Positions 22,684 through 35,093 of a stretch of DNA of 37,503 nt are shown here, in pieces; the first letter of the stretch is position 1, and each line of letters begins with the position of its first letter. Location: the IMG/VR virus record IMGVR_UViG_2513237219_000007, positions 1-37,503 of that record; one strand, written 5' to 3'. The notes beneath the pieces were generated by a model. That model was not told the DNA's origin and searched no databases. It saw nothing but the letters and a program-made list of their open reading frames with translations. The stretch is from a virus (taxonomy: Duplodnaviria > Heunggongvirae > Uroviricota > Caudoviricetes). The translations under genes were made by a program, and so were the position numbers.

Positions 22684-23718
22684 TGGGAAAGAGTAAGAAG
22701 AACCGCGCTGCGGCGACGAAACAGATCCAGCTTAAAAGTCAAACTACAGCCGAAGCATTCAGCTTCGGCGATCCCGTTCCTGTTCTGGACCGCCGAGAAC
22801 TGCTGGATTATGTGGAATGCGTACAGATGGACCGCTGGTATGAGCCGCCCGTCAGCTTTGACGGACTGGCGCGCACCTTCCGCGCTGCCGTTCATCATAG
22901 TTCCCCGATTGCAGTAAAGTGCAACATTCTGACCAGCACCTACATCCCTCACCCGCTGCTCAGCCAGCAGGTCTTTTTCGCGTTTTGTGCAGGACTATCT
23001 GGTATTTGGTAACGCCTACCTGGAGAAACGCACGAACCGCTTCGGTGAAGTTATCGCCCTTGAACCTGCCTTGGCAAAATACACCCGACGCGGGTTAGAC
23101 CTGGATACCTACTGGTTTGTGCAATACGGTATGACCACGCAGCCATATCAGTTCACGAAAGGCAGCATCTTTCATCTGATGGAACCGGACATCAACCAGG
23201 AGATCTACGGCCTGCCCGGTTATCTTTCTGCTATTCCATCCGCCCTGCTCAACGAGTCTGCCACGCTGTTCCGCCGCAAGTATTACATTAACGGCAGTCA
23301 TGCAGGCTTCATCATGTATATGACCGACGCCGCGCAGAACCAGGAAGATGTGAACAACCTCCGCAACGCGATGAAAAGCGCCAAAGGCCCTGGCAACTTC
23401 CGCAACCTGTTTATGTACTCGCCTAACGGCAAAAAGGACGGGCTTCAGATCATCCCGTTGTCAGAAGTCGCAGCGAAAGATGAATTTCTGAACATCAAGA
23501 ACGTGAGCCGGGACGACATGATGGCTGCACACCGCGTACCGCCTCAGATGATGGGAATTTTGCCGAATAATGTTGGGGGGTTTGGGGATGTGGAGAAGGC
23601 AAGTCGGGTATTTGTTCGTAATGAATTAATACCTTTGCAAAAACGTTTCGAAGAATTAAATTTATGGCTAAAAAATAATATTATTACATTCAAAGAATAT
23701 CAACTATCCCTAGACTAA
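22680..23718 (+). pseudogene. Portal protein gpQ, interrupted by a +1 frameshift in a T5 run
   Basis: Two ORFs (22680..23012 and 22987..23718) together span 1039 nt (about 346 codons, P2 Q-size); frame switch maps to the T run at about 22974..22978; removing one T gives continuous ...LLSQQVFSRFVQDYLVFGNAYLEKR... Confidence 0.8.
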
Positions 23719-23723
23719 TTAAT

Positions 23724-23744
23724 AACCACCTCTATGAGGTGGTT
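23724..23744. terminator. Bidirectional hairpin between convergent Q and the AT-rich orphan gene
   Basis: AACCACCTC-TAT-GAGGTGGTT, perfect 9-bp stem. Confidence 0.5.
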
Positions 23745-23765
23745 AACAAGAATAAACCTAATTAA

Positions 23766-32698: not shown

Positions 32699-32701
32699 CT
32701 T

Positions 32702-33742
32702 ATGACCATCAGAAAACAGCCGAACGGAAAATGGTTGTGTGAGTGCTATCCCAATGGACGCAATGGTAAGCGCGTGCGTAAGCAATTTGCTACCAAAGGC
32801 GAAGCCATTGCGTTTGAAAGCTTCACAATGGAAGAAGTGAACAAAAAACCATGGCTAGGGGAAAAGGAAGATCGGCGACATCTATCAGAATTAATTGAGC
32901 TGTGGTATTCCCTGTATGGTCAAACACTCGCAGACCCCAAGCGCCTCATGGCGAAACTTAGAATTATCTGTAATGGTCTAGGCGATCCCATCGCCTCAGA
33001 ACTGACAGCTGGTGAGTTTACGAAATACCGCGAAGCACGGTTAAAAGGTGAAGTACGAAATGAAGATGGCACGCTTATGTCGCCCGTTAAGCCCCGCACG
33101 GTAAATCTTGAACAGCGCAACCTATCATCTGTTTTTGGTACACTGAAAAAGCTGGGCCACTGGTCAGCCCCCAACCCGCTTGCTGGGCTGCCAACATTTA
33201 AAATTGCTGAGGGTGAATTGGCGTTCCTGACCCCGGAAGAAATTAAACGTCTGCTGGATGCCTGTGCTGATTCTCAAAGCCCCAGTCTGCTGATGATTGC
33301 AAAAATATGCTTGGCCACCGGCGCACGCTGGAGCGAAGCCGAAAACCTACAGAGTCATCAGGTATCAAAATACCGTATCACTTATACCAAGACTAAAGGA
33401 AAGAAAAACCGAACAGTGCCTATTTCAAAGGATTTATATGAAGAACTGCCTAAGAATAGGGGAAAATTATTTACACCTTGTAGGAAAGCTTTTGAACGTG
33501 CGGTAAAACGAGCTGGTATCGAGCTACCAGAAGGGCAATGCACACACGTATTACGACATACATTTGCAAGTCACTTTATGATGAATGGCGGAAACATACT
33601 GGTGCTGCGCGATATTCTGGGCCATGTCGATATAAAAATGACAATGATTTACGCCCACTTCGCTCCCGACCATCTGGAAGATGCTGTAACCAAAAATCCT
33701 CTTGCTAACCTTGGATGGAGAAAATTAGAAAGTGCTTGTTAA
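32702..33742 (+). CDS. int: Tyrosine integrase (P2/186 Int family)
   Basis: 346-aa ORF with the catalytic region HVLRHTFASHFMMNGGNILVLRDILGHVDIKMTMIYAH. Confidence 0.9.
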   Translation: MTIRKQPNGKWLCECYPNGRNGKRVRKQFATKGEAIAFESFTMEEVNKKPWLGEKEDRRHLSELIELWYSLYGQTLADPKRLMAKLRIICNGLGDPIASELTAGEFTKYREARLKGEVRNEDGTLMSPVKPRTVNLEQRNLSSVFGTLKKLGHWSAPNPLAGLPTFKIAEGELAFLTPEEIKRLLDACADSQSPSLLMIAKICLATGARWSEAENLQSHQVSKYRITYTKTKGKKNRTVPISKDLYEELPKNRGKLFTPCRKAFERAVKRAGIELPEGQCTHVLRHTFASHFMMNGGNILVLRDILGHVDIKMTMIYAHFAPDHLEDAVTKNPLANLGWRKLESAC

Positions 33743-33898
33743 TAACTATATCCAACAATACCCATGGATATCGTACTTACTTATCATAATATATTTTTTA
33801 TATATATGCCTTGAATTATATCTATGCGTATCAAAAAAAGGCTTTAACATGGATGAAAGGCCATTAACAAGTCAATACTTATTTAAACAATCACTTAG

Positions 33899-35093
33899 GG
33901 AAGGTGCGAACAAGTCCCTGATATGAGATCATGTTTGTCATCTGGAGCCATGGAACAGGGTTCATCATGAGTCATCAACTTACCTTCGCCGACAGTGAAT
34001 TCAGCAGTAAGCGCCGTCAGACCAGAAAAGAGATTTTCTTGTCCCGCATGGAGCAGATTCTGCCATGGCAAAACATGGGTGGAAGTCATCGAGCCGTTTT
34101 ACCCCAAGGCTGGTAATGGCCGGCGACCTTATCCGCTGGAAACCATGCTACGCATTCACTGCATGCAGCATTGGTACAACCTGAGCGATGGCGCGATGGA
34201 AGATGCTCTGTACGAAATCGCCTCCATGCGTCTGTTTGCCCGGTTATCCCTGGATAGCGCCTTGCCGGACCGCACCACCATCATGAATTTCCGCCACCTG
34301 CTGGAGCAGCATCAACTGGCCCGCCAATTGTTCAAGACCATCAATCGCTGGCTGGCCGAAGCAGGCGTCATGATGACTCAAGGCACCTTGGTCGATGCCA
34401 CCATCATTGAGGCACCCAGCTCGACCAAGAACAAAGAGCAGCAACGCGATCCGGAGATGCATCAGACCAAGAAAGGCAATCAGTGGCACTTTGGCATGAA
34501 GGCCCACATTGGTGTCGATGCCAAGAGTGGCCTGACCCACAGCCTGGTCACCACCGCGGCCAACGAGCATGACCTCAATCAGCTGGGTAATCTGCTTCAT
34601 GGAGAGGAGCAATTTGTCTCAGCCGATGCCGGCTACCAAGGGGCGCCACAGCGCGAGGAGCTGGCCGAGGTGGATGTGGACTGGCTGATCGCCGAGCGTC
34701 CCGGCAAGGTAAAAACCTTGAAGCAGCATCCGCGCAAGAACAAAACGGCCATCAACATCGAATACATGAAAGCCAGCATCCGGGCCAGGGTGGAGCACCC
34801 GTTTCGCATCATCAAGCGACAGTTCGGCTTCGTGAAAGCCAGATACAAGGGGTTGCTGAAAAACGATAACCAACTGGCGATGTTATTCACGCTGGCCAAC
34901 CTGTTTCGGGCGGACCAAATGATACGTCAGTGGGAGAGATCTCACTAAAAACTGGGGATAACGCCTTAAATGGCGAAGAAACGGTCTAAATAGGCTGATT
35001 CAAGGCATTTACGGGAGAAAAAATCGGCTCAAACATGAAGAAATGAAATGACTGAGTCAGCCGAGAAGAATTTCCCCACTTATTCGCACCTTC
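33899..35093 (+). mobile_element. IS5 insertion sequence (about 1.2 kb) flanked by 4-bp TTAG target-site duplication
   Basis: Terminal inverted repeats GGAAGGTGCGAACAAG (left) and CTTATTCGCACCTTCC (right); TTAG at 33895..33898 and 35094..35097; encodes InsH. Confidence 0.9.
33967..34948 (+). pseudogene. insH: IS5 transposase InsH with an apparent +1 frameshift
   Basis: [37 protein letters not shown] is in one frame and [19 protein letters not shown]... in the next; the sequence reads ACATGGGTGG where canonical IS5 has ACATGGTGG. Confidence 0.8.

Follow-up and report, generated by a model that had tools for sequence, protein, structure and literature searches.

The 37,503-nucleotide window analysed here (positions 1 to 37,503 of the IMG/VR virus record IMGVR_UViG_2513237219_000007, Caudoviricetes) contains, inserted at ssrA, a complete prophage of the P2/186-like type (Peduoviridae), in which the portal gene Q and the insH transposase gene of a resident IS5 element are each broken by a single extra base. 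The locus raises the question of whether such lesions record the decay of a prophage or errors in the genome record that carries it. Over the 14.8 kb that were compared, positions 22702-37503 are 100% identical to CP002291.1 (L017; GCA_000257275.1), a genome record of E. coli P12b whose proteins bear the P12b name, and a CP002291.1 position equals 2968131 plus the window position; no member of the complete-genome collection matched the window at 100%. A preliminary description of the window, made from the letters alone, had listed three independent insertions in short homopolymers, in Q, in a tum-like gene and in insH, and had set assembly error against real decay. We conclude that the extra T in Q and the extra G in insH are very probably sequencing artefacts and not prophage decay, because of the sequencing platform, an independent assembly, a sequence context that recurs at a second insertion, near-identical prophages that have no extra T, and frameshift errors reported across the P12b genome. 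The tum-like locus is undamaged. Coordinates are collected in Table 1.

The open reading frames (ORFs) of Q run from 22683 to 23012, ending at a stop after 109 residues, and from 22987 to 23718, and the product of the second matches the Phage_portal family PF04860 (2.1e-17). Removal of one base restores a portal protein of 344 residues, and in this respect the description of Q as disrupted by one added base was right. The insertion had also been assigned to the run of five Ts, and there the alignments disagree. The window reads GGTCTTTTTC where intact relatives read GGCTTTTTC, a change of GG^CTTTTTC to GGTCTTTTTC, and the extra T, one C away from the run, is not part of it because the intact relatives have five Ts too. 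Over 27.8 kb aligned at 99.4-99.7% identity with MSB1_4I (L001), the closest complete genome, this T is the single indel. Alignments did not find it in that genome or in L025, L026, L027, L028 and L034, three of which (L028, L025 and L034, from unrelated strains) show just 0-3 substitutions against the window over 9-15 kb. A 251-bp query found the extra T in none of 1,204 portal matches from 1,169 E. coli genomes; the best match covered 250/251 positions, and 13 of the 1,204 differed from the query solely by the extra T. The truncated 109-residue product was not found by exact look-up in about 15 billion proteins.

C-terminal fragments of Q, 243 and 195 residues long, do occur elsewhere. They were considered as confirmation of the same frameshift and rejected, since their lesions differ: L012 is a deletion junction without the extra T, the split in L007 falls elsewhere, and L008-L011 are what deletions left behind. 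Portal decay in those other samples (L007-L012) looks genuine, with one gene split into 146 + 195 residues at a different site and with large deletions in several relatives that join D or the tape-measure gene to what is left of the portal gene.

The IS5 insertion is itself real, because it is flanked by TTAG target duplications and the corresponding empty site is seen in strain VG12A2; the same insertion occurs in the assembly GCA_900448865.1 and in a Logan contig of ERR1010177. Its length is close to 1,195 bp, and it has 16-bp terminal inverted repeats (the window copy ends in GGAAGGTGCGAACAAG and CTTATTCGCACCTTCC), a 4-bp target duplication of the form YTAR and a DDE transposase, the C-terminal insH ORF giving matches to DDE_Tnp_1 (1.5e-35) and DUF772 (2.9e-21). 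The reported GGG in place of a canonical GG in insH is confirmed by three other IS5 copies, K-12 IS5A, that of ECONIH5 and the same-locus copy of GCA_900448865.1, all of which have GG, and the triplet can be placed at 34077-34079. The extra G was found in none of 13,831 IS5 places in 2,874 complete E. coli genomes, where the best match was 99.7% identical, and exact protein look-up found no insH fragments spanning the shift. At 34597 and 34801 the CP002291 copy also differs from the same three copies by third-position synonymous changes (CTT vs CTG, Leu, and CCG vs CCA, Pro). The view that the window element is a simple K-12-type variant was rejected, K-12 IS5A agreeing with the other assemblies at both positions. 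The two differences may derive from pooled reads of several IS5 copies or from gene conversion.

The most direct comparison is with GCA_900448865.1 (UGBH01000002.1; L026, L037), which shares with P12b the prophage, the IS5 at the same TTAG site, the flanks and the right-hand island, and which we infer to be the same clone. Over the window-equivalent interval 18445-43742 (25.3 kb), the two assemblies differ at five positions: the T at 22972, the G at 34077-79, the two synonymous changes in IS5, and a further T at L017:18755. Over about 24 kb of unique sequence there are no substitutions at all. Both the portal protein (344 residues) and InsH (326 residues) are intact in GCA_900448865.1. The additional T falls in a DUF6119 gene unrelated to Q, whose product is called as 563 residues instead of 544, and it was not found in GCA_900448865.1, NCTC9040, PSJ-16 or ECC-1470; its context is identical to that of the T in Q. 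No other private indel was found across the alignable stretches of 960-37503. The notion of three events of one error type is upheld in part: two private single-base insertions do lie in the window, in Q and insH, the tum-like gene has to be withdrawn from the set, and a third event is found beyond the window, in an unrelated gene.

The P12b genome was assembled from 280,242 454/Roche FLX reads of 238 bp (13.5x) plus 2.86x Sanger coverage (PMC3378880); SRR2000272 is cited elsewhere as a P12b run (PMC6018222). A carry-forward error adds one base, identical to that of a homopolymer, close to the run but not touching it (PMC3764156). The T at 22972 fits that definition, with one C between it and the five Ts, and L017:18755 is arranged in the same way; the minus strand reads AAAAA-G-[A]-CC at both sites. 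We propose that base-calling errors went uncorrected when the low-coverage 454 FLX and Sanger data were assembled, and so remain in the consensus of the 2012 GenBank record. The T at 22972 would then be a carry-forward insertion, a spurious copy of the homopolymer's base placed one position after the run on the minus strand, and the G at 34077-79 would be an overcall of GG as GGG, not a carry-forward. The true sequence would be GGCTTTTTC in Q and CATGGTGG in insH, and the reads behind the assembly would themselves have carried the errors. Trouble of this kind extends beyond the prophage. Among 63 genomes, infC, dnaX, mukB, rplE and serS are apparently absent solely in P12b, and such cases were traced to frameshifting sequencing errors (PMC5992433). 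The preference for sequencing or assembly error over decay is in this way strongly supported for Q and insH by the independent assembly, the 454 platform, the repeated context and the published frameshift errors. The more specific proposal of indels in short homopolymers suits the GG to GGG change in insH; it does not suit Q, where the same-base insertion stands one base from the run.

The window has 51 runs of six or more bases, and none showed an indel wherever alignment to a close relative was possible; against four assemblies, no private indel turned up in the left 21.5 kb, and neither the Q nor the insH insertion lengthens a run of four or more bases. Seven GGCTTTTT sites are unaffected, so the motif is not always hit, and one genuine GGTCTTTTT, at 13425, is common to relatives. 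The density of errors is two in 37.5 kb, or three in 42.8 kb (about one per 14 kb). The errors in P12b are context-specific insertions, only moderately systematic, with no blanket miscounting of homopolymers. A different pattern, the classic one for long runs, is seen in the recent complete genome CP164995.1 (L030), which at window positions 1428, 3577 and 20210 has A7 for A8, C5 for C6 and T5 for T6 where four other assemblies have no indel, and in which the gene calls for the capsid scaffold and the tape-measure protein are missing; that assembly likely has a homopolymer-error problem.

Several considerations weigh against sequencing error as the cause. The errors are recognised by comparison with other assemblies and not from raw reads, and the authors of the P12b genome report re-amplifying and checking repeats and stretches of low quality (PMC3378880). 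GCA_900448865.1 may come from a clone-mate and not from P12b itself, in which case mutations specific to the P12b stock would be conceivable. The two synonymous substitutions in IS5 are not accounted for by indel-type error. Finally, the modest density, together with the agreement of alignable runs of six or more bases, is unlike the classic miscounting of long homopolymers.

The alternative that survives best, though we regard it as improbable, is that the sequenced P12b stock truly has both insertions, with a cryptic prophage unable to package DNA and an IS5 left without a transposase of its own. Relatives do decay elsewhere, by the split portal of L007 and by the deletions fusing D or T to a portal remnant in L008-L010 and L012; the window prophage does bear a genuine IS5 insertion; and the identity of GCA_900448865.1 with P12b is deduced, not documented. 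Such decay would, however, need three indels and no substitution in about 24 kb of unique sequence when set against the clone-mate assembly. Two of those three indels are one and the same kind of insertion, an unusual one outside a homopolymer, and both fall in an identical 9-mer, a coincidence that technical bias explains far better than independent mutation does. The platform was 454 at 13.5x, and in the P12b genome even essential genes are frameshifted, which is impossible in a living strain. What defines a cryptic prophage is real lesions in essential phage genes. Here the T in Q is the only lesion in an essential gene, and it is missing from the clone-mate assembly; IS5 sits in an accessory gene that is not part of the conserved core. 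The cryptic, immobilised prophage offered as the alternative in the preliminary description is accordingly not what these comparisons describe.

Somewhat less credible again is a version in which the insertions are real because GG^CTTTTTC is a biological hotspot for gain of a T, for example by polymerase misalignment beside the T run. Were that so, a sequence-specific mutational process would have knocked out the portal gene, the IS5 transposase and the DUF6119 gene, and an otherwise perfect prophage would have been immobilised.

The tum-like gene, the remaining member of the original trio, had been thought broken by one base added to a run of five As. No insertion is present there, and both the run and the two-gene layout are conserved. 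The 481-bp tum region, run included, is 100% identical in strain MS7163 and was found at 1,160 places in 1,125 E. coli genomes and in 67 phage records; the five As are conserved in Fels-2 and in Klebsiella phages as well. All annotated records among the matches listed have the two genes, encoding a 62-residue and a 77-residue DinI-like protein. The tumA-like gene is annotated as a separate coding sequence in MSB1_4I, in Fels-2 and in a Klebsiella phage, and the exact tumA-like and tumB-like proteins each occur on at least 1,000 contigs. The DinI-like ORF starts 10 nt past the tumA-like stop, with an ATG and a GAGGTG ribosome-binding site of its own. A predicted LexA box lies between gene A and tum, the same region as the annotated putative LexA site of phage 186, p95; since 42 of 100 shuffles had at least one match to the consensus, it is the position of the box that carries weight and not the count. 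As judged from its sequence, the locus is an undamaged, native two-cistron SOS operon of tumA-like and tumB (DinI-like) genes, and the split tumA/DinI pair of P2/186-like phages is to be read as the native layout and not as a frameshifted tum.

The impression of a frameshift in tum probably came from the DinI frame, which is open for 24 codons 5' of its ATG (25731-25802, minus strand) and overlaps the end of the tumA-like gene in the +1 frame. A DinI protein of 101 residues, starting from an upstream ATG, is annotated in some database records. That open extension, the 101-residue annotations and the fused 146-residue Tum of phage 186 could all be cited for programmed ribosomal frameshifting that bypasses the shifts, a +1 slip at GCA-AAA-A joining the two tum ORFs into a fusion resembling 186 Tum. 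We consider recoding very improbable. The DinI-like ORF has the translation signals just described, the 62-residue product aligns over its full length with a PHROG made up of free-standing proteins of 63 residues, and in phage PsP3 the division between tumA and tumB is of another kind, a stop codon separating two ORFs that share a frame, so that no recoding signal is conserved; moreover, the shifted Q and insH exist in the CP002291 assembly alone. Least credible of all is the reverse, in which CP002291 is correct and GCA_900448865.1 and the other assemblies each lost a base, for although some assemblies do carry visible indel errors (CP164995.1 is an example), over 1,000 portal homologues, without exception, and all best-matching IS5 copies lack the base, in numerous and mutually unrelated assemblies, and full-length, family-typical proteins (344 and 326 residues) come only from the shorter version.

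With sequencing error as the favoured explanation, the corrected ssrA prophage of P12b looks fully intact and very recently mobile, the opposite of an immobilised prophage. It is probably intact and SOS-inducible, and the phage would be functional. Unrelated strains have copies that show 0-1 differences over 15 kb. The artefact is of a known kind, and its consequences reach further than one prophage. By extrapolation from three events in 42.8 kb, CP002291.1 probably carries a few hundred single-base insertion errors, and without correction it is unfit for calling pseudogenes, cryptic prophages or dead IS copies; in comparative work, errors of this sort have already led to essential genes appearing to be missing (PMC5992433).

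Table 1. Coordinates of the features discussed, in window positions unless another record is named.
Feature	Position	Strand	Basis or remark
ssrA, transfer-messenger RNA gene	698-1060	+	ARAGORN; smpB upstream
attL, ssrA 3' end, left copy of 45-bp direct repeat	1016..1060	+	exact repeat match to 36064-36108
Terminase large subunit, gpP-like, 588 aa, intact, directly 5' of Q	20917..22683	+	ORF list; annotated as terminase ATPase subunit in near-identical L001
Portal gene Q, 1036 bp (1035 bp/344 aa in relatives)	22683..23718	+	split: 109 aa + stop, then 243-aa ORF
Extra T in Q, between GG (22970-71) and C (22973)	22972	+	CP002291.1 position 2991103
T5 run, normal length	22974..22978	+	alignments: T5 also in intact relatives
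tumB/DinI-like gene, 77 aa, complete	25497..25730	-	PF06183 DinI, 6.6e-23
tumA-like gene, 62 aa, complete, contains A5 (25785-25789)	25741..25929	-	phrog_698, match 1-62 of 63, 3.6e-38
LexA-box consensus CTGT-N8-ACAG, ~44 nt 5' of tumA-like ATG	25973..25988	.	predicted; perfect match, only one in window
TTAG, left copy of 4-bp IS5 target-site duplication	33895..33898	+	empty site in strain VG12A2
IS5, 1196 bp (canonical 1195), in 309-aa accessory gene between int and attR	33899..35094	+	99.7% identity to IS5 copies; empty site
insH transposase gene, 982 bp (vs 981 bp/326 aa)	33967..34948	+	intact 326-aa call at same locus in L026/L037
GGG (one extra G) vs GG elsewhere	34077..34079	+	CP002291.1 3002208-3002210; private to CP002291
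TTAG, right copy of IS5 target-site duplication	35095..35098	+	empty site in strain VG12A2
attR, right copy of 45-bp ssrA-derived repeat	36064..36108	+	exact repeat match
Third P12b-only extra T, near 3' end of DUF6119 gene	L017:18755 = window-equivalent 41456 = CP002291.1 3009587		~4 kb right of window end

The prophage, IS5 included, occupies about 1061-36108 and is bounded by the 45-bp repeats. Its genes run ogr-D-...-tail-...-L-M-N-O on the minus strand and P and Q on the plus strand, followed by a low-GC accessory gene, the tum region, and A, Dam, CII, CI and int. The accessory gene between Q and the tum operon (23766-25175, minus strand) encodes 469 residues, has a GC content of about 36% and has no Pfam hit on record. 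Related prophages hold differing genes in this slot, among them Hypoth_Ymh, DUF4145, SEFIR/TIR, ThsB_TIR and putAbiC, and the slot looks like a hotspot for defence or cargo genes. A gene of 273 residues with no assigned function (28446-29267, minus strand) fills the gap between Dam and A; it is rare, with 22 contigs in one look-up and 48 blocks in another. Gene A starts at 28446 in the window prophage and encodes 790 residues, versus the usual 804, the codon at 28488 being GAA.

In the tail-fibre region (8960-11420), a resolvase-family recombinase gene (8960-9532) lies beside genes, on opposite strands, for alternative tail-fibre C-termini and fibre assembly, and the segment looks invertible. 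Only 9 contigs carry the 504-residue fibre protein seen in the window, and GCA_900448865.1 yielded no copy of it, perhaps through a flipped segment in that assembly. Directly 3' of attR at the ssrA site begins a second integrase-bearing island (window 36232-37503, continuing in L017/L037), and the two elements therefore form a tandem array of mobile elements at ssrA. Beyond attR the island carries MC3 and LmuB_C (Lamassu-like), DUF6119 and radical-SAM genes.

As a source of error, P12b resembles other low-coverage 454 FLX data: all three events are insertions, the type that 454 over-produces, both T events copy the base of a five-base run one position away, in the manner of carry-forward, and the G event turns GG into GGG, as an overcall does. 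It differs from 454 read errors in that the errors sit in a finished consensus and not in single reads, from which it would follow that most reads at each site share the error, or that coverage there is locally thin or strand-biased. The IS5 of the window shares with that of E. coli K-12 its length bar one base, the terminal inverted repeats, the TTAG duplication and the DDE transposase. The two copies, window and K-12 IS5A, differ at 9 of about 1,195 positions, and the extra G and the two synonymous changes occur only in the CP002291 copy.

The tum operon stands closest to tumA/tumB of PsP3 and tum of 186, which share its position after the replication gene A and the upstream LexA box, the latter predicted in the window. 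PsP3 TumB is 78% identical to the 77-residue DinI-family ORF, and the PsP3 annotation likewise splits tum into tumA and tumB. The first window ORF and the N-terminal half of 186 Tum may be distantly related, having weak shared matches to phrog_698, phrog_8554 and phrog_1993. In other respects the loci diverge: 186 has a single fused Tum; the 62-residue window ORF belongs to phrog_698 and not to phrog_1993, and BLASTP gave no alignment between it and PsP3 TumA; and the ORFs that PsP3 keeps in one frame lie in different frames in the window. The prophage as a whole belongs with the Fels-2-type P2/186-like ssrA prophages (Peduoviridae), with which it shares the order int-CI-CII-Fil-...-Dam-A-tumA-tumB-(accessory gene)-Q-P-O-N-M-L...-D-ogr and the 45-bp att repeats that stem from the ssrA 3' end, and it is 96-99.99% identical to prophages of many E. 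coli genomes. It is set apart from that group by the IS5 that interrupts the accessory gene lying between int and attR, and from its closest complete-genome relative by the extra 273-residue gene between Dam and A.

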